DNA of 64,000 nucleotides from assembly GCA_965205975.1 (NCBI GenBank), contig OZ242195.1, positions 5,216,001 to 5,280,000 on the forward strand. Reading direction: 5' to 3'. A program made the position numbers and the translations under genes. The notes below the pieces were generated by a model, which made no database searches, was not told where the DNA came from, and saw only the letters and a list, made by a program, of their open reading frames with translations. This document shows, in pieces, positions 3,401 through 22,676 of this stretch. The number at the start of each line of letters is the position of its first letter. Within the stretch, counting starts at the first letter, position 1. The DNA is from Candidatus Latescibacterota bacterium (GTDB lineage: Bacteria; Latescibacterota; UBA2968).

Positions 3401-4506
3401 TGGACACATTGCGACAGGACAGATGGGATGGTCGCTATTTCGACGGGTATAGTACGAATCCCCATCGTGTTTCCATCACCATTTCCAATGCGGGACTTGA
3501 GATTGCAAAGACTGATGGTACTGTTTTCCACTGGTATTTTCATCAGATCCGGCTGTCTCAGGGGGCTTATACAGGTGAGCAGGTGCGCCTGGAAAAAGGG
3601 GATGAAATGCTCGTTGTTGACGATCCCGTTTTTCTTCAGGCTATTCACTATATTGCACCGAATCGCAGTCGTTTTCACAATCCGCGTTTCCGCAGGCACA
3701 GAACGGCACTCACAGTGCTATCTGCTGTGGCAATCATTGTCATCGGTCTGGTGCTCTATTTTCGTGGCATTCCAACGCTAACGGATCTTGTGGTGGTTTA
3801 TTTACCCGTCCGCTGGGAGGAAGAACTCGGTGCTCAGGTCGTTTCATTACTCGCTCCCGAAAATAGGCGAATTGACGATCCAAATTGTCAGAAAGCCATT
3901 GAACGTATTGCCGATTCGCTCATGGAAACCGAACAGTCATCCCCCTACCGTCTGCATATTATTTTAAAGCGAGATCCAATTATCAACGCCTTTGCAGCAC
4001 CTGGGGGATATATTGTCATACACGATGGATTACTCAAAAAAACCAAATCGCCCGAGGAACTCGCCGCTGTGCTCGCACACGAAATTCAGCACATCCTTCA
4101 GCGCCATTCAACGCGGGCAATTCTCCGCGAATTGTCAATTGGCATGCTCCTCTCTGCCCTGTCGGGGGATGCGGGCGGGCTGCACTACGCGCTTGAAACA
4201 GTGCATACATTGGGCGGGTTGCGCTTCCGACGTCAAGATGAAGTCGAAGCTGATCAAAAAGGCATGGAAATGCTTCAGAAGGCCAAAATTGATCCCAAAG
4301 GCATGGTTGTGTTTTTTGAAACACTAAAAAAAGAAGTGGGAGATATTCCCCGTTTTTTGAGCTATGTATCAACCCATCCTCGCACCGAAGAACGCATTGA
4401 AAGGTTGCAGCAGATAGCCGACCAGAGCGATTACGAATCTGTTGCCCTCTTACCAGACACTGACTGGTCAGAGATTCAGAAGGTGTGCGCCAGAAGGCCA
4501 AAATAG
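3400..4506 (+). CDS. M48 family zinc metallopeptidase (usual YjgN partner)
   Basis: 'INAFAAPGG', 'VLAHEIQH', 'EVEAD', 'STHP' motifs; overlaps yjgN stop. Confidence 0.85.
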   Translation: MDTLRQDRWDGRYFDGYSTNPHRVSITISNAGLEIAKTDGTVFHWYFHQIRLSQGAYTGEQVRLEKGDEMLVVDDPVFLQAIHYIAPNRSRFHNPRFRRHRTALTVLSAVAIIVIGLVLYFRGIPTLTDLVVVYLPVRWEEELGAQVVSLLAPENRRIDDPNCQKAIERIADSLMETEQSSPYRLHIILKRDPIINAFAAPGGYIVIHDGLLKKTKSPEELAAVLAHEIQHILQRHSTRAILRELSIGMLLSALSGDAGGLHYALETVHTLGGLRFRRQDEVEADQKGMEMLQKAKIDPKGMVVFFETLKKEVGDIPRFLSYVSTHPRTEERIERLQQIADQSDYESVALLPDTDWSEIQKVCARRPK

Positions 4507-8483: not shown

Positions 8484-9431
8484 ATGTCAGAGCTAAGAGT
8501 GGGGATTATCGGTGCAGGGGGTCACGCACAGAGCCACTTCAGGATGATCCAGGACGAGCCGGAAATGGCGTTGGTTGCGGTTGCAGACCTGGATCCAGAA
8601 AGACTGGCGCACACGCGAGAGACGCACGGCGTGACGTCCCTTTTTACGGATTATCGGGAGATGATCGAGAAGGTGCAATTGGATGTGGTCTATGTTGTGA
8701 CCTTTCCGGGGCCATTGCCCGACATTGTGATTGACTGTCTGGAGGCAGGGCTGCACACTTCGGTAGAGAAGCCGCCGGGCATCAGTTCGGATCAGACCCG
8801 ACGGATGATGGAGGCAGAACGGCGATCCAGCGCCAGGGCGATTGTTTCGGTGAACCGGCGGTACATTCCAGAAGTGTTGGCGATTCGGGCCATGCTGCAA
8901 GATCGAGGCGGACCCGTTCATGTGGCGGCGACGTACAACAAGCCGCATATTGGGGACAAGGTCCGGGATGTCGGACATCTTATCCGATTGGACGCGATCC
9001 ACCATGTGGATCTGTTGCGATGGCTGGCAGGTGACGCTGTCGAGGTTTACTCAGAGGCGTGGTCTGCGCCTTCCCACCCTGCCGAGATGCGCCACAATGC
9101 TGTGATCAAGTTCGAAAGCGGATGCCGGGGTGTGATGATGAGCCACTACGCTGTTGGATACCGCATTCAGCGGTTTGAAGCGCATGCGGAAGACTTCAGC
9201 GCGTATGTGGATCTCACGAGTGGCCCCAGGTGTGAGATCTATGCTGACGGAGGGCCGTTCGAGGGCGAGTTAGATCTGGAATCGGTCGGCGGTCCCGACT
9301 TTAACGAGACCCGGCATTTCGTGGCGTGCATACAAAACGATACGCAGCCGTGGAGCACGCTTGAGGATGCGATCAAGACGATGATGTTGTGCGAAGCGAT
9401 TGAGGCGGGACATAAAGGTCAACTGGAATGA
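8484..9431 (+). CDS. Gfo/Idh/MocA family oxidoreductase
   Basis: 'VGIIGAGG', 'VEKPP', 'DAIHHVD'; SD before ATG 8484. Confidence 0.85.
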   Translation: MSELRVGIIGAGGHAQSHFRMIQDEPEMALVAVADLDPERLAHTRETHGVTSLFTDYREMIEKVQLDVVYVVTFPGPLPDIVIDCLEAGLHTSVEKPPGISSDQTRRMMEAERRSSARAIVSVNRRYIPEVLAIRAMLQDRGGPVHVAATYNKPHIGDKVRDVGHLIRLDAIHHVDLLRWLAGDAVEVYSEAWSAPSHPAEMRHNAVIKFESGCRGVMMSHYAVGYRIQRFEAHAEDFSAYVDLTSGPRCEIYADGGPFEGELDLESVGGPDFNETRHFVACIQNDTQPWSTLEDAIKTMMLCEAIEAGHKGQLE

Positions 9432-9454
9432 TTTTTTGGGCCAGGAATAGATGT

Positions 9455-11632
9455 ATGAAAAAAGCAGTTCTTCATTTTCCGCCTTTTGCCTTTTATCTGT
9501 GTATATCTGCGTTCATCTGCGGATGCTTTTCTTCTGTCAGCTATGCTTCTTCTCCATACGAAGACATGGGGGCACGCGATAATCTGTACGCTGCCGCAAA
9601 GCAAGCATTAAATGTGGGCGAACCGCGTACTGTGCGAATGATCTACTTTTTGCCGAATGACCGCCCGTTTCAGCAAGCAGTAGTTGATTCAATGAAAGTG
9701 ACAATTCGCCAGATACAGACGTTTTATGTCGATCAGATGGAGGCACATGGCTATGGTCGCAAGACCTTTCGCTTTGAAACCGATGCACAGGGCGGTCCAG
9801 TGGTCCATCGCGTGGATGGGCAGCATCCCGATAGTCAGTATCTCGACAATACATTTAACACTTTATTTGCCGAGATTGGACAAGCGTTTGATGCCACACA
9901 GAATATTTATTTTATTGTTGTTGACAATAGTACGAATCGAATTGGGCAGGCGGCCGGTAGTGCAAGACTGATGGGAAAAAATGGTGGCATTTGCTTCGTG
10001 CCTATCGGATTTCACTGGACAACGGCGGCCCATGAACTCGGACACACTTTTGATTTGCGTCACGATTTCAATGATGATACGTACATTATGTCGTATGGTC
10101 GCGAAGGACGATATCAATTATCTGCGTGCCATGCGGAATTTTTGTCTGTGCATCCCTATTTCAATCCCGATATACCAACTGAAGAGGCGCAGCCACCAAC
10201 TATCGAACTCGTTTCGCAGACTGGATATCCAGCCAGTTCAAAGAGCGTTTCTATCCAACTCAAAGTCAGCGATGCGGATGGGCTGCATCAAGTGATCTTA
10301 TTTATTACAACAATCCCCCCTCATTCTGCTACTGGATCTTATGAAGTGAAGTCGTGTCGTGGATTGGCAGGTGAAAGAGATGCCATTGTTGAATTTGATT
10401 ACGATGGCGTTATTCCATCTGATAGCAGCACGAGTCTTTCTGATCCTGTCGAGCATCGGATTTATGTCGAGGCTGTTGATTCTTTTGGGAATGCTGGCAA
10501 TACGCGTTTTGAGCTATTTGATATTTCGACTCAGCGCAATCACATCGCTACCCTTGAAGAACATACGGGGAATGTCTATTCGGTGACGTTTTCACCTGAT
10601 GGCACCACTCTCGCTTCTGGGTCAGGGGATCCCTCTATCAAGCTATGGGATGTTGCGACACGGACAAATATCGCCACGCGTACACGATTTACGAGTAGCG
10701 TTTATTCAGTGGCGTTTTCACCCGATGGGGCCATTCTCGCTTCTGGGTCAGGGGACACGGTTACTCATCTGTGGGACGTTGCTACGTGGGCAATAATTAC
10801 CACGCTCCAAGGACATACGGAGGCGGTCAATTCAGTGTCATTTTCACCCGATGGGGCTATCCTTGCTTCCGGGTCAGAGGATCGCACAGTCAAGCTGTGG
10901 GATGTTGCGACACAGACAAATTTTGCCACGCTTGAAGGACATACGGAGGCGGTCAATTCAGTGTCATTTTCACCCGATAGTGCCATCCTTGCTTCTGGAT
11001 CAGGGGATCGCACAGTCAAGCTGTGGGATGTTGCGACACAGACAAATTTTGCCACGCTTGAAGGACATACGAGTGGCGTTTATTCAGTGTCATTTTCGCC
11101 CGATGGGGGTATCCTCGCCTCCGGGTCATGGGATGACACAGTCAAGCTGTGGGATGTTGCGACACAGACAAAAATTGCCACACTTGAAGGGCATCGGGGT
11201 AACGTCTATTCAATATCATTTTCACCCGGTGGCAGAATCCTCGCTTCTGGGGCAGGGTCATGGGATCGCACAATCAAACTTTGGGATGTTGTCACGGGGA
11301 CAAACATCGCTACGCTTACGGGGCATAGGGGTATGGTCCGGTCAGTATCATTTTCGCCCGATGGGGCCACCCTCGCTTCTGGGTCATGGGATGACACAGT
11401 CAAGCTGTGGGATATGTCTCTGTATATCACCTCTCCTACGCCAGCCTCTGCATCCGACTTTGATGGTGATGGTACTGTTGGCTTTGCTGATTTTTTGCAG
11501 TTTGTGGAACTGTTTGGGTTAAATCAGGAAGATGAGGCGTATCAAGCGCGATTCGACTTGAATGGGGATGGTGTGATTGGGTTTGGGGATTTTCTGATTT
11601 TTGTCAACGCCTTTGGTGAGAAGGTGTCATGA
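9455..11632 (+). CDS. Secreted multidomain protein: zinc metallopeptidase domain + ~7 WD40 repeats + C-terminal paired EF-hand (dockerin-like) module
   Basis: Signal peptide; 'AAHELGHTFDLRHD' zincin motif; repeats 'GH..V.SVSFSPDG..LASGS.D.TVKLWD'; 'DFDGDGTVGFADFL...DLNGDGVIGFGDFL'. Confidence 0.85.
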   Translation: MKKAVLHFPPFAFYLCISAFICGCFSSVSYASSPYEDMGARDNLYAAAKQALNVGEPRTVRMIYFLPNDRPFQQAVVDSMKVTIRQIQTFYVDQMEAHGYGRKTFRFETDAQGGPVVHRVDGQHPDSQYLDNTFNTLFAEIGQAFDATQNIYFIVVDNSTNRIGQAAGSARLMGKNGGICFVPIGFHWTTAAHELGHTFDLRHDFNDDTYIMSYGREGRYQLSACHAEFLSVHPYFNPDIPTEEAQPPTIELVSQTGYPASSKSVSIQLKVSDADGLHQVILFITTIPPHSATGSYEVKSCRGLAGERDAIVEFDYDGVIPSDSSTSLSDPVEHRIYVEAVDSFGNAGNTRFELFDISTQRNHIATLEEHTGNVYSVTFSPDGTTLASGSGDPSIKLWDVATRTNIATRTRFTSSVYSVAFSPDGAILASGSGDTVTHLWDVATWAIITTLQGHTEAVNSVSFSPDGAILASGSEDRTVKLWDVATQTNFATLEGHTEAVNSVSFSPDSAILASGSGDRTVKLWDVATQTNFATLEGHTSGVYSVSFSPDGGILASGSWDDTVKLWDVATQTKIATLEGHRGNVYSISFSPGGRILASGAGSWDRTIKLWDVVTGTNIATLTGHRGMVRSVSFSPDGATLASGSWDDTVKLWDMSLYITSPTPASASDFDGDGTVGFADFLQFVELFGLNQEDEAYQARFDLNGDGVIGFGDFLIFVNAFGEKVS
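10811..11188 (+). repeat. Near-identical 126-bp tandem coding repeats (WD40 blades)
   Basis: Units start at 10811, 10937 and 11063 (ggacatacg...), 126 bp apart. Confidence 0.9.
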
Positions 11633-13415: not shown

Positions 13416-13508
13416 TGGCAGAGGGAGGGGGACTCGAACCCCATGCGAAAATTCGCACGCGGGCTTGTGTTTTGCTGCCCGCGGCCCACCTTGGACCGTT
13501 CACCCCCT
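13416..13508 (-). ncRNA. tRNA-like RNA copy A (93 nt): 8/4 allo-tRNA-type cloverleaf, long V-arm, encoded CCA, 12-nt non-canonical anticodon loop
   Basis: Reverse complement: AGGGGGTG AA CGGTCC-AAGGT-GGGCCG CGGGC-AGCAAAACACAA-GCCCG C GTGCGA-ATTT-TCGCAT GGGG-TTCGAGT-CCCC CTCCCTCT G CCA. Confidence 0.85.
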
Positions 13509-13527
13509 GCATTGATGCTGTTATTTT

Positions 13528-13613
13528 TGGCAGAGGGCGAGGGACTCGAACCCTATGCGGTTGCCCGCACCACCGACCAGTGTCGGGCGGCCCCCTTGGA
13601 CCGTTCGCCCCCT
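13528..13613 (-). ncRNA. tRNA-like RNA copy B (86 nt): 8/4 allo-tRNA-type cloverleaf, long V-arm, encoded CCA, 4-nt loop in place of anticodon loop
   Basis: Reverse complement: AGGGGGCG AA CGGTCC-AAGG-GGGCCG C CCGAC-ACTG-GTCGG TG GTGCGG-GCAA-CCGCAT AGGG-TTCGAGT-CCCT CGCCCTCT G CCA. Confidence 0.88.
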
Positions 13614-13653
13614 ACCTATCTATTTTGACAGAGCTACGCGCTCAAGAGTTTCT

Positions 13654-18930: not shown

Positions 18931-20376
18931 TTAATTTATCAGACTCGCATATGCCTCTCGCCCTTGGCGGAAGAGGTCTTTGACTTCGTCGCGTTGCTGG
19001 TCTGTGTTGTAGCGGCCATAGGTGTCGATCCATTTGAGCGCGTCTTCGATGCCGTTGAGAAAATACTGCGCAGATTCGTTGCGTTCGGCAGGTGGGCGTC
19101 CGCAGGCAAAATAAACCGGGCTGCTGTGTGCGTAGATCGATTGGTCAAAGCTGTCGCGCTGGTTGCCCCAGAGCCGGGCTACGACCCAGCCGTCGCGGTC
19201 GATATTTACCCGATGGCGAATGGCGCCCTCGCGTTTGCCTTCGGGATAGTTTTCCCTGTGAATGATGTGCCCATTCATCGCGATTTCGGCGCAGTGAATG
19301 GGGTAATAGGATGTGAATGTGGATTCTATGTCGAGCGAGCCGCCTGAAGGCAATTCAACTGTGGCACCCATGGGGTGATCGTTTGCGTTCAGGTCAATGG
19401 CGGGACCATTGGTGATAAAGGTGTTGCCCGATTTCATACCGGTTATCCAGTTTTCGTAGGAGAATGCACCTTTGGTGTTGACATAGACGCGGTTGTTGGA
19501 GCAGACGAACCAGTCGGTGCCGGTGGAGGCGGGCAAGGCGATGCCGCAGTTGAGCAGTTTGTACCACAGGTCGTATTCGGGGTCCATCCAGAAGGGATCG
19601 AACAGGTTGAAGGCGTCCAGTTTGCCCAGTGCCGCAGCAATAGGGGCTTCCATGCCGCGACCGTTGTGACACCATATTACAATACCACCTTGATCGCGGG
19701 CTTCGTCACAGCAAAAGCACAGGGGGGGATAGTCGGGGTCGAATTGCGCTGTGAGGATGTGGCCGCGGCTGACGGGTTGGATGAGGTTGCGGATGTTGAG
19801 GAACATGACGTGCCCATATCCGAACCCCCAGGGCGAGTTTTCGCCGTAGTGGCGGTTTTCTTCGCCGATGTCGAGTACGTGATGTGCGGTGGTAAATTCG
19901 TTCATTACGCCGATGGGATATTTGTTGCTGGCGTAGGGGAGTTGCCTTCTGTCGAGGACGCTTACGACGGTGACGTTGTAGCCTTCCACGCTGCAGTCAA
20001 TGGATAGACGGTCGTCGGGGCGGGTTTCTTTTTCGTCGTAGTGGATGTGCGTGTTGCCCGGATACCAGTTGTTTTCCTGGGGGATATACCAGCGGTTGAG
20101 GGTGATTTCGACGTCTTTGACGCCGTTTTCGGGCATTTCGACCACGGTGCGGATGGGTTCGTATTCCGTGCCGCGTTCGACCAGTATGTCGGTGCGCCCG
20201 CGTGAGGCTTGAACTTCAAATTCGCCATCGCAAAAGAAGAAGGGCGTGCCGGGACCGCGCTTGAGCATGGCGTCGCGCGGGTGGCAAAAACGACCGTTGG
20301 CGGTCAGGACGTGTACTTTGGCGTTGATGTGTTCGCCTGTGGTGCTGTCGATAATATGTCCGTGCAGGGTGCCCAT
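18931..20376 (-). CDS. CehA/McbA family metallohydrolase (PHP-like)
   Basis: 'VERGTEY', 'WYPGNTHIH', 'WYKLLNCG...STGTD', 'GNTFITNGP', 'AHSSPVY'. Confidence 0.78.
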   Translation of the reverse strand: MGTLHGHIIDSTTGEHINAKVHVLTANGRFCHPRDAMLKRGPGTPFFFCDGEFEVQASRGRTDILVERGTEYEPIRTVVEMPENGVKDVEITLNRWYIPQENNWYPGNTHIHYDEKETRPDDRLSIDCSVEGYNVTVVSVLDRRQLPYASNKYPIGVMNEFTTAHHVLDIGEENRHYGENSPWGFGYGHVMFLNIRNLIQPVSRGHILTAQFDPDYPPLCFCCDEARDQGGIVIWCHNGRGMEAPIAAALGKLDAFNLFDPFWMDPEYDLWYKLLNCGIALPASTGTDWFVCSNNRVYVNTKGAFSYENWITGMKSGNTFITNGPAIDLNANDHPMGATVELPSGGSLDIESTFTSYYPIHCAEIAMNGHIIHRENYPEGKREGAIRHRVNIDRDGWVVARLWGNQRDSFDQSIYAHSSPVYFACGRPPAERNESAQYFLNGIEDALKWIDTYGRYNTDQQRDEVKDLFRQGREAYASLIN

Positions 20377-20460
20377 AGAGAACTCCTGATTTAGGTGTAT
20401 CTAAACAGAAAATGATCGGCTCAGGAATTGGATGATGGACTTGATAAAGAGATGAGTCAT

Positions 20461-21447
20461 CTATATTTCTTGGTCAAACTTGTCAACGATTTTTTTTGCG
20501 AGAGATTGAAAGTCCTCAAAGCAACTCCTGACCGCCTTTTGTTGCGCGCCGATAGCACCGTCTGCTGGTTTCAACATGAACATAGGTTTTTTTCCCTCTT
20601 GTGCATAGGGCATGAGTGAACGGTAGTCTTTCAAGTGCGCCAAAAGATATTTATCGGTATCTATCGTCGGTGTTGTGGAGTTGCTTTTTTCCAGGACAGA
20701 TTCCCTGTATTCCACAGGTATCTTGTCAATCCATCTTTGGAAGGCTTGTACCGGACGATCTAGTCTGATGGTGTGTCGCATGACAATGTAACCGAGAGGT
20801 TTCATGTCGCCGCTGGGTAGGCTGATATCCATATCTACCGGTTGCTCATTAATGCGTTTTTTCCATGCCGATCTCCATTCTCTCAAAATCTCTCCTACAT
20901 TTCCTAAGCCTTGCAAAGAGAACAGGTCGGGCGCAAGTGGGATAATAATATGGTCGCTGGCTATCAGCGCAGCTCGGTTAATAGCACCGAGATTCGGCCC
21001 GACATCTAACAATGCCAAATCGGCTTCAAATTGTTCACCGGCACTGGCTATCAGCCGCGCAAAGGCAGTTGTTACGCGAAAGGCGCGTTCTTCTCCGTCC
21101 AAACACTTTGACCATCGCTCTGAGAGTTCTCCTTCGCGCTTGGAAAGAGCAAGGTCGCCGACCAACAGGCCGATCCGTTCATCGATTTTTTCTATATGAG
21201 GTTCCGCGGTAATGTCGCCTGTTCCTTTGAACAAGGGTGCTATGTCTCCATCAATGGTTTTTGGCGGGGTCTGCCAAATTTCTTCCAGTCTGTTTTCTCT
21301 TAGAAACATCCCGCTCAGATTGGCTTGGGGATCCAGGTCGGCTGCGATGACGCGATGCCCGACTTCATTGAGCATCCATGCGAGGTGATAAACAAGGGTA
21401 GTTTTACCTACGCCACCTTTATTGTTAAAAAACGCGATGGTTTTCAT
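20461..21447 (-). CDS. ParA/Soj-family (SIMIBI) ATPase, orphan
   Basis: Deviant Walker A 'NNKGGVGKTT', 'DLDPQANLS', 'DVGPNLGAIN'. Confidence 0.88.
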   Translation of the reverse strand: MKTIAFFNNKGGVGKTTLVYHLAWMLNEVGHRVIAADLDPQANLSGMFLRENRLEEIWQTPPKTIDGDIAPLFKGTGDITAEPHIEKIDERIGLLVGDLALSKREGELSERWSKCLDGEERAFRVTTAFARLIASAGEQFEADLALLDVGPNLGAINRAALIASDHIIIPLAPDLFSLQGLGNVGEILREWRSAWKKRINEQPVDMDISLPSGDMKPLGYIVMRHTIRLDRPVQAFQRWIDKIPVEYRESVLEKSNSTTPTIDTDKYLLAHLKDYRSLMPYAQEGKKPMFMLKPADGAIGAQQKAVRSCFEDFQSLAKKIVDKFDQEI

Positions 21448-22643
21448 TGACGTTTCCTTATTTCCGCAAGGATGACCGTATCCTCAACTTCAAATTTCAA
21501 CTCAGGGTTGCCATTTTCCTCCAATGCTTTGTACGCTGTCGAAATGCCTATGCCAAAACGTTGCATAAATCCCATATTCTTCATTGCTTCGGCGATGGTG
21601 GGATTGCGATATGCAGTAATATTTAGCGTCCTAAAATTTTCAAAATTCTCTTTTGTTACTTCGCCATAAACCGAACCCGGACTGATAATTTCTACTCTGT
21701 TGGCAAACCAATAAATTCGCACAGGCGTATTGGTGCTGTCGTAGTTTCTGTGGATTACCGCATTTCGGACCAACTCGCGCAGTGCCTCGTACGGATAGTC
21801 TGGCTCTTCAATATGTGTTTCTCCACGGGTGTTCAGAGCAATAGCGATATTTCGTTTCAGCAGGCTGTCTATTTCGCGTAATTGATCCGGTAATGGGCCA
21901 GAGATTACAGTCTGATCGAGAATGGGATCCGTCACCTGATTTCCTGCATAACGGACAAACTGAATATATGCACCCGGAAACCAATAGGATGGCTCTTTAC
22001 CCAACATGAGTATTGCCGTCACTGTTGGCGTTCTGTCTTGAGTCGTCAAACGGAGTGCTCGCAATTGTGCTTCACGGTCACGGTCATTGGCTTCCATCAC
22101 CTCGGGTGGTATAGCAGAGGGCAGGTATTCATTTTCAAATTTCCATATATCCAGATCTTCTTCTATAGATGTGTTTTTCACCCCTTGCATATCAAACGGC
22201 AAATTTCCCCATTGTCTTTTCTCCGTTAAGCGACGCTCTTCATCAGATGTTGCCTGACCGCGTCTTGGGCCAATACGTATCCAACATCTACCATCAACCT
22301 TCACTGGAGGATTATCGGATGGTTTGACCTGTATCACGGCGATTTCGCAACCATTCAGAATTTTCTTGTCAACTTCCATAGATGGAAAGGGGAGAATTTT
22401 GCCGTCATTTCGCAAACCACCGAGTGTCTGTAATAATTGATCATCAATCGTCAAGCCTGCACAACTTCCGTCATCTTTGATGCCAACAAAGATCAGGCCT
22501 GGCTTCCTGTGATCGGGCATGTCGTTGGCAAAGGCGCAGATCGCTTGACGAAATTTATCGAAATCTGTGGTTGCTTGGGTAAATTCCACCCGGTCACTTT
22601 CCCCTCTCTGGATTATCGCAGACAGTTTGTTGTCACTCAGCAT
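21444..22643 (-). CDS. Schlafen/AlbA_2 domain protein with RecG-C-like (HATPase_c_4) C-terminal domain
   Basis: 'GESDRVEF...ICAFAN...GLIFVGIKDDG'; 'YPYEALRELVRNAVIHRNY', 'RVEIISPG', 'RNPTIAEAM', 'GIGI'. Confidence 0.82.
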   Translation of the reverse strand: MLSDNKLSAIIQRGESDRVEFTQATTDFDKFRQAICAFANDMPDHRKPGLIFVGIKDDGSCAGLTIDDQLLQTLGGLRNDGKILPFPSMEVDKKILNGCEIAVIQVKPSDNPPVKVDGRCWIRIGPRRGQATSDEERRLTEKRQWGNLPFDMQGVKNTSIEEDLDIWKFENEYLPSAIPPEVMEANDRDREAQLRALRLTTQDRTPTVTAILMLGKEPSYWFPGAYIQFVRYAGNQVTDPILDQTVISGPLPDQLREIDSLLKRNIAIALNTRGETHIEEPDYPYEALRELVRNAVIHRNYDSTNTPVRIYWFANRVEIISPGSVYGEVTKENFENFRTLNITAYRNPTIAEAMKNMGFMQRFGIGISTAYKALEENGNPELKFEVEDTVILAEIRKRQ

Positions 22644-22676
22644 TATATGCTCCAGATTGTATTATAGGGCTGTTTA

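Follow-up and report, generated by a model that had tools for sequence, protein, structure and literature searches.

Tandem tRNA-like RNAs without an anticodon loop belong to a conserved family in Latescibacterota and keep alanine- and serine-type charging marks

The window analysed here, a 64,000-nucleotide stretch of the genome of a Candidatus Latescibacterota bacterium (contig OZ242195.1), contains two small tRNA-like RNA genes in tandem on its minus strand. These genes, TL2 and TL1, are separated by a short spacer and sit between convergent genes, a PhyH-family gene on the minus strand and a xylose-isomerase-like gene on the plus strand, the stop codon of the latter falling 2 nt from the 3' end of TL1 (Table 1). 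The coordinates given for the pair in the earlier note on this DNA are exact. The last two bases of the spacer are G and C, for which pairing with C74 and G73 of TL1 is possible. The host genome consists of one contig of 5.56 Mb and is 98% complete; a full set of ordinary tRNAs, plus tRNA-Sec and tmRNA, is encoded elsewhere in it. Public runs containing this stretch are mostly labelled as sponge metagenome. At positions 9428-11632 (+) the window also encodes a eukaryote-like repeat protein (734 aa) with a large WD40 beta-propeller region; proteins of this kind have often been noted in sponge symbionts. In RNA-library contigs of a relative (runs X13 and X15), position 20376 is joined to 22676 with 97 other letters between them, a junction that indicates that ~2.3 kb of the window (20376-22676) is absent or replaced in that relative.

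Table 1. Features of the TL locus, with the tRNA-Sec and tmRNA genes of the same genome
Feature	Position	Strand	Description
PhyH-family dioxygenase, 323 aa	13654..14625	minus	upstream of TL2; Pfam PF05721, E 5.7e-20
Stretch from PhyH-family stop codon to TL2	13614..13653	minus	40 nt
TL2	13613->13528	minus	tRNA-like RNA gene, 86 nt
TL2 acceptor	13613-13606 with 13539-13532	minus	8 bp; G3 at 13611, U70 at 13534
TL2 AA linker	13605-13604	minus	
TL2 D arm	13603-13588	minus	6 bp + AAGG loop
TL2 anticodon-arm hairpin	13586-13573	minus	5 bp + ACUG tetraloop
TL2 variable arm	13570-13555	minus	6 bp + GCAA loop
TL2 T arm	13554-13540	minus	4 bp + UUCGAGU
TL2 G73	13531	minus	
TL2 CCA	13530-13528	minus	
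TL2-TL1 spacer	13509..13527	minus	19 nt, A/U-rich
TL1	13508->13416	minus	tRNA-like RNA gene, 93 nt, in tandem with TL2
TL1 acceptor	13508-13501 with 13427-13420	minus	8 positions, U7.U66 mismatch; G3 at 13506, U70 at 13422
TL1 D arm	13498-13482	minus	6 bp + AAGGU
TL1 anticodon-arm stem	13481-13477 with 13464-13460	minus	5-6 bp
TL1 anticodon-arm loop AGCAAAACACAA	13476-13465	minus	12 nt
TL1 variable arm	13458-13443	minus	6 bp + AUUU
TL1 T arm	13442-13428	minus	4 bp + UUCGAGU
TL1 G73	13419	minus	
TL1 CCA	13418-13416	minus	
Xylose-isomerase-like TIM barrel, 268 aa	12607..13413	plus	convergent; Pfam PF01261, E 5.4e-35
tRNA-Sec	C1:3425281-3425378		outside the window
tmRNA	C1:160399-160783		outside the window; ARAGORN

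Both RNAs begin with AGGGGG(C/U)G and end with C(G/U)CCCUCU-G-CCA, and the elements that the earlier note had read as a mixture of alanine and serine identity (A1-U72, G2-C71, G3.U70, G73 and a long variable arm, of 6 bp with a 4-nt loop) are all present in each, together with a genomically encoded CCA. MFE folding returns the same five helices in TL1 and TL2. For TL2 the minus strand folds at -46.7 kcal/mol versus -35.3 for the plus strand (z -2.4 versus -0.4), for TL1 at -42.9 versus -35.7 kcal/mol (z -1.9 versus -0.6), and the G.U pairs of the minus-strand fold become C-A mismatches on the plus strand. The acceptor/T stack is of the 8+4 kind, with an AA linker after the acceptor, and the elbow is intact, with a G18G19-type D loop and a canonical UUCGAGU T loop. 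An 8/4 rather than a 7/5 register is assigned because G8-C65 is kept in 38 of the 42 distinct family members introduced below, with one A-U compensation, and because a fifth T-stem pair would be U-C. This is the fold of the so-called (8/4) allo-tRNAs (Mukai et al. 2017, Nucleic Acids Res, PMC5389517; reviewed in PMC7609411), and here the earlier reading was incomplete: its Ala/Ser elements stand and prove conserved among homologues, but the allo-tRNA architecture of 8-bp acceptor, 4-bp T stem and 6-bp D stem went unrecognised.

TL1 and TL2 are unable to decode, because the anticodon arm ends in a tetraloop in TL2 and in a 12-nt loop in TL1. Run on the window, ARAGORN called neither a tRNA nor a tmRNA, and at gathering thresholds no Rfam family matches either RNA; in a permissive Rfam search the best match was tRNA-Sec (RF01852), at 31 bits for TL1 and 17.5 bits for TL2 against a cut-off of 47.

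A DNA search recovered the TL pair, or TL2 alone, across the genus, in arrays of 1-3 copies whose order varies. Seventeen TL2 orthologues are 95% identical, with compensations at C7-G66/U7-A66 and in the D stem already apparent in a plain MAFFT alignment, and TL1 copies are identical or 98-99% identical in five genomes of the genus. We built a covariance model (R1) from the 17 TL2 orthologues, which scores TL2 at 108 bits and TL1 at 71.5 bits, and searched 61 relatives with it, taking 46 bits or more as a strong match. Strong matches occur in 18 of the 21 genus genomes (the window's own counted) and also in three other genera, which belong to the same family or order; a neighbouring genus gave none in 15 genomes. 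When 151 genomes sampled evenly over the phylum were searched, R1 matched 20 of them at E 1e-6 or better, all from one family. A pattern scan of a genome collection gave, among the matches listed, 80 loci with DNA, 24 of which match R1 at E 0.001 or better; one of these (L133) carries the 105-nt paralogue described below, and the other 23, scoring 26-34 bits, are taken from their scores as ordinary class II tRNAs, four of the 80 loci having been checked with ARAGORN. A scan of metagenomes for the family gave seven loci and a scan of viral sequences none. The TL RNAs are a conserved family of one clade, probably Latescibacterota from sponge-labelled samples.

Several other loci came to light in these searches. 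The window's own genome carries a third paralogue of 105 nt (C1:690063-690167 (-), locus L215 ~4063-4167), for which ARAGORN likewise gives no call. This paralogue has the same acceptor as the TLs, AGGGGGUG...CACCCUCU-G-CCA; its acceptor and T stems stack 8/4, and its variable arm is 11 bp long. The loop of its anticodon-like arm, CUUCCAAA, has 8 nt (9 nt in 5 of the 12 orthologues) and is closed by a stem with tandem G-A/A-G; the paralogue is 97% identical in 12 genus genomes. One TL2-type copy within the genus (L030 1456-1569, genome G020) bears a 27-nt insertion in its T loop, for a total of 114 nt; the insertion may form a hairpin of its own, and the copy could be either disrupted or an insertion-bearing variant. 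In a Pseudomonadota MAG (L130 2001-2565) three direct copies of the 3' half of a tRNA-Ser(UGA) gene, comprising variable arm, T arm and acceptor, lie behind that gene, the kind of trace that repeated integration into a tRNA attachment site leaves; these are unrelated to the TL RNAs.

The five helices all covary. Covariation was assessed over 37 R1 matches (32 distinct) in an alignment fitted to the model, a fit that favours the structure; controls with slid partners, which are ~50% paired, and the compensations in the MAFFT alignment point the same way. Over the 32 distinct sequences 98.4% of cells are paired and both partners have changed in 17 of 29 pairs, with compensation in 6/6 pairs of the D stem, 5/5 of the anticodon stem and 2/4 of the T stem, and none of 500 shuffles reached any observed measure of covariation.

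When the anticodon arm is folded alone in the 42 distinct members, loops of 4, 5, 6 and 8-12 nt are obtained. Two 7-nt MFE loops arise solely within irregular bulged arms (L198 and L190), and a regular 5-bp stem with a 7-nt loop occurs in 0/42 members, which bears out for the family the non-decoding character that had been proposed from two copies. Three loop classes are found within the genus: the TL2-type tetraloop, which is in every array; the TL1-type 12-nt loop, in six genomes with the window's own counted; and a third type with a 6-nt loop, AUUCUG. The A/C-rich TL1-type loop is carried on different stems, as GCAAAACACAAG in this genus, GCAACACAAAA and GCAACACAAAG in another genus and GCAACACGAAG on a metagenome contig, and this recurrence across genera on differing stems suggests that the loop sequence itself matters. 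Antisense pairing was sought genome-wide, and sites complementary to 9-11 nt of the TL1 loop were not enriched, 31-34 of 100 shuffles being at least as high.

The acceptor end is conserved in a different manner. For these counts 49 matches were reduced to 43 distinct sequences and, after removal of one unrelated 37-bit match, to 42 members. Pair 2 (G2-C71) is invariant (42/42) and a single pair type is kept at the other five of the first six pairs in 39-41 members: A1-U72 in 39, G3.U70 in 40, G4-C69 and G5-C68 in 41 each, and G6-C67 in 40; 41 members carry G73 and 35 carry CCA. Where G3.U70 is missing, in two members, A3-U70 stands in its place; both of these also lack CCA and so look like decayed copies. 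Position 3:70 is never G-C. Elsewhere in these RNAs the two pair types replace each other freely (a pair of the variable arm is GU in 28 and GC in 4, and one of the D stem is CG in 12 and UG in 11), so the wobble at 3:70 is being kept as such. The homologues thus conserve G3:U70, and its lack of conservation among them was what the earlier note had named as a refutation of its reading. The acceptor end is under sequence selection beyond the maintenance of a helix, a pattern that would fit a sequence-specific reader of this end, with D and anticodon stems left to covary freely. Immediately upstream, bases -2/-1 are G followed by C or U in 40 of 48 family copies, including the window's two (13614-13615 and 13509-13510 (-)), whereas sequence further upstream is unrelated between loci. 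These bases could pair with C74 and G73 and so extend the acceptor helix; they could belong to the mature RNA, or serve as a start site or as a signal for processing.

It might be argued that the TLs are decaying pseudogenes of an allo-tRNA or of tRNA-Ser, functionless and with anticodon loops lost by mutation. Degenerate copies do exist (the two A3-U70 members without CCA, the T-loop insertion of 27 nt in L030, and 7/42 members without CCA), and the lack of a call from ARAGORN and Rfam is what such relics would give. Decay is, however, hard to square with compensatory changes in every helix and 98.4% pairing over 32 distinct sequences, with 95% identity of the TL2 type in 17 species, or with a family kept in four genera with loop sequences conserved on differing stems, and we regard it as very improbable. 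The TLs are real, selected, non-decoding RNAs of the allo-tRNA kind.

Directly 5' of TL2 lies a block of ~35 nt that is conserved throughout the genus (GAAAC..TTGAG..CAG..TGTCAAAATAG..GGT, from 18 aligned upstream regions), and it is kept with the array in L016, L023 and L026 despite differing sequence further upstream. A hand reading finds in it an extended -10-like motif, TGnCAAAAT, which is not decisive, and a scan for consensus promoters upstream of TL2 found no sigma-70-type site; we take the block as a putative promoter or leader for the array. In another genus, a G+C-rich hairpin and U-run directly 3' of the family copies in G030:C96 and G025:C905 appear to mark a discrete gene. Two studies supplied RNA-library contigs covering the TLs of a relative at 95-99% identity, though such contigs show neither strand, ends nor transcription, and gaps in their cover of a 20-kb stretch carry no meaning. 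Among 14 copies (13 dispersed ones and the window), as read from ORF tables, 8 lie behind an ORF on the same strand, 9 have a convergent ORF ahead of them and 3 have a divergent upstream ORF, so that these last three need a promoter of their own.

This arrangement invites another explanation, that the TLs act in cis as punctuation or insulators, providing RNase P/Z cleavage sites or stabilising transcript ends at the 3' end of the PhyH-family gene, with no role as free RNAs. TL2 begins 40 nt after a same-strand stop codon and TL1 ends 2 nt from a convergent one, the counts of same-strand and convergent ORFs given above are of the kind it would call for, and one 118-nt RNA-library contig runs from the end of the PhyH-family gene into TL2. 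The three copies with a divergent upstream ORF do not fit, the upstream block moves with the array into different contexts, and none of G3.U70, G73, CCA and a conserved loop sequence would be needed for punctuation. It seems improbable that these RNAs serve only to mark transcript ends.

G3:U70 is the main determinant for AlaRS, and G73 with a long variable arm is a mark of SerRS substrates; neither enzyme reads the anticodon. Because the TLs combine these marks, we infer that AlaRS and/or SerRS would charge them with Ala or Ser. Such charging is plausible by analogy with published allo-tRNAs: G3:U70 allo-tRNAs whose anticodon was made CUA inserted Ala in E. coli, and the one with G73 inserted Ser as well (PMC5389517). 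The reading that we favor is that the TLs are conserved 8/4-fold RNAs without an anticodon loop that mature like tRNAs, are charged by AlaRS and/or SerRS and never decode, a proposal that we hold to be about as likely as not. Under it, maturation would be of the RNase P/CCA type; the body of acceptor, T, D and variable arms would be the part read by charging enzymes; the freed anticodon arm would be a variable module specifying a partner; and the charged L-shaped RNA would act outside decoding, as an amino-acid donor or a charge-dependent ligand. A mature RNA that retained the -2/-1 bases would have its discriminator buried, which would argue against charging. The genome's own tRNA-Ala has G1-C72 and A73 where the TLs have A1-U72 and G73, so the efficiency of AlaRS on the TLs may be low.

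The genome encodes one AlaRS (C1:576286-577908, in an 871-aa frame) and one class IIa synthetase of 431 aa, the size of SerRS and probably that enzyme (C1:3969942-3970469), and no dedicated paralogue of either enzyme was found in it. Nor did Pfam searches of the window flanks and of 28 ORFs around 13 dispersed copies in other genera reveal a recurrent neighbour family; PQQ_2 propeller genes lie beside three dispersed copies, which look like orthologous loci. Candidate partners sought by co-occurrence fared no better. A stand-alone DUF2156/LPG_synthase_C protein is present in 53 of 61 relatives, including 15/15 genomes of the genus without the RNA, and SelA in 57/61, so that neither protein tracks the RNA; neither a CDPS nor a FemAB-like Acetyltransf_6 protein was found in the genome. 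The stand-alone DUF2156 gene lies in an apparent operon elsewhere in the chromosome (L214 6221-11279; G000:C1 ~3617220-3622280, minus), in the order CCA-adding/poly(A)-polymerase-family enzyme, proteins of 202 and 362 aa without Pfam match, a BpsA_C polyamine-synthase-like protein and DUF2156, an assembly that hints at tRNA-dependent aminoacylation of a small molecule. This DUF2156 protein, of aminoacyl-tRNA transferase type, is not tied to the TL RNAs, because it is widespread in the order.

An uncharged role must also be weighed, in which the TLs are structural tRNA mimics whose L-shaped, tRNA-Ser-like body titrates a tRNA-binding protein, be it an acceptor-targeting toxin or a processing or modification enzyme; such a mimic would leave translation undisturbed because it does not decode. 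Elbow, acceptor and CCA would serve any tRNA-recognising protein, the G-Y conserved at -2/-1 could seal the acceptor end, and allo-tRNAs have been reported close to toxin-antitoxin systems (PMC5389517). One family copy in another genus (L196 2027-2680, G030:C96) has a convergent nucleotidyltransferase/HepT-like toxin-antitoxin pair at a distance of 89 nt; the orthologue of this copy is at L197 5626-5760 (G025:C905). A toxin-antitoxin neighbour was, however, seen for only 1 of 13 dispersed copies scanned and for none in the window, neither neighbourhood nor co-occurrence yielded a candidate partner, and the strict preference for G.U over G-C at 3:70 points to AlaRS-type recognition. We therefore consider a mimic unlikely, if well short of negligible, and return to the chargeable RNA in what follows.

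Allo-tRNAs are odd adaptors capable of mistranslation. The TLs differ in that decoding has been removed and the charging marks kept under sequence-level selection, in a chromosomal, vertically kept family. It is tempting to speculate, tentatively and with considerable doubt, that a serine-type tRNA was turned into a family of anticodon-less, chargeable RNAs of dual (Ala/Ser) identity, with loop classes that address different partners, serving as aminoacyl carriers or charge sensors outside the decoding center. If charged, the TLs would provide a bacterial example, beside tmRNA, of an aminoacylated RNA without an anticodon; if uncharged, they would be a clean case of a tRNA decoy. Either outcome bears on the purpose of allo-tRNA-like genes, and a compact, translation-inert 8/4 scaffold may interest tRNA engineers.

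A class II serine tRNA is the most likely ancestor of the TL family. Over its last 26 nt, TL2 departs from the tRNA-Ser(UGA) genes of class-level relatives at a single position (C72 to U72), and those genes carry a GCAA variable-arm loop like that of TL2. Relative to tRNA-Ser(UGA), G1-C72 has become A1-U72, A3 has become G3, creating G3.U70, and the partner of C65 has shifted from position 49 to position 8, turning 7/5 into 8/4. From this comparison, G73 and the long arm would be inherited and G3.U70 derived and then fixed. The TLs thus share with class II tRNA-Ser its G73, G2-C71 and long variable arm with a GNRA-type loop, and with the tRNA-Ser(UGA) of related families a nearly identical T arm and 3' acceptor strand. 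They differ from tRNA-Ser, which is 7/5 with G1-C72 and A3-U70, in being 8/4 with A1-U72, G3.U70, a long D stem and no anticodon loop.

Among other known RNAs, tmRNA is anticodon-less, has G3.U70 and CCA, and is charged by AlaRS. It differs from the TLs, which are five-helix cloverleaves without a coding part, in having no D stem, A73, a tag reading frame and a need for SmpB; ARAGORN finds no tmRNA in the window, and the real tmRNA lies elsewhere. An 8-bp acceptor, a 6-bp D stem, a long variable arm and G73 are shared with tRNA-Sec, an assignment we rejected on scores below the 47-bit cut-off, an acceptor/T stack of 12 rather than 13 bp and the lack of a UCA loop. The Y RNA YrlA has a tRNA-like domain and works with Ro. 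A YrlA-type module was likewise rejected, as no TROVE/Ro gene was found in the 98%-complete genome and control genomes were matched by the same search. The tRNA-Other of B. cereus is also a small tRNA-shaped RNA outside ordinary decoding, but it retains an anticodon loop and is charged by LysRS (PMC5389517).

The closest likeness is to the (8/4) allo-tRNAs and is one of fold; the TL acceptor and T arm resemble the local tRNA-Ser(UGA), so that common descent with the published set would not follow from it. Shared features are the 12-bp acceptor branch split 8/4, a tRNA-Sec-like D arm (in the TLs of 6 bp with a 4-5-nt loop containing GG) and a long variable arm with G73 (G73 or U73 in the published set) (PMC5389517). 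Polycistronic and irregular copies also occur among allo-tRNAs, and inactive allo-tRNA-UAU species are documented (PMC5389517). In contrast, the published allo-tRNAs have anticodon loops, with 35 anticodons, where the TLs have tetraloops or loops of 5-12 nt; several of them decode in E. coli; and the hosts named for them are Clostridia, Proteobacteria and Acidobacteria, the TL phylum not being among those (PMC5389517). The TLs therefore show three of the defining allo-tRNA features and lack one, the 7-nt anticodon loop. In the article texts searched there was no description of such anticodon-less RNAs. Mixed Ala/Ser charging of allo-tRNAs with G3:U70 and G73 is already known from published work (PMC5389517); what the TLs add to it is a family in another phylum that is inherited vertically, covaries and lacks an anticodon.
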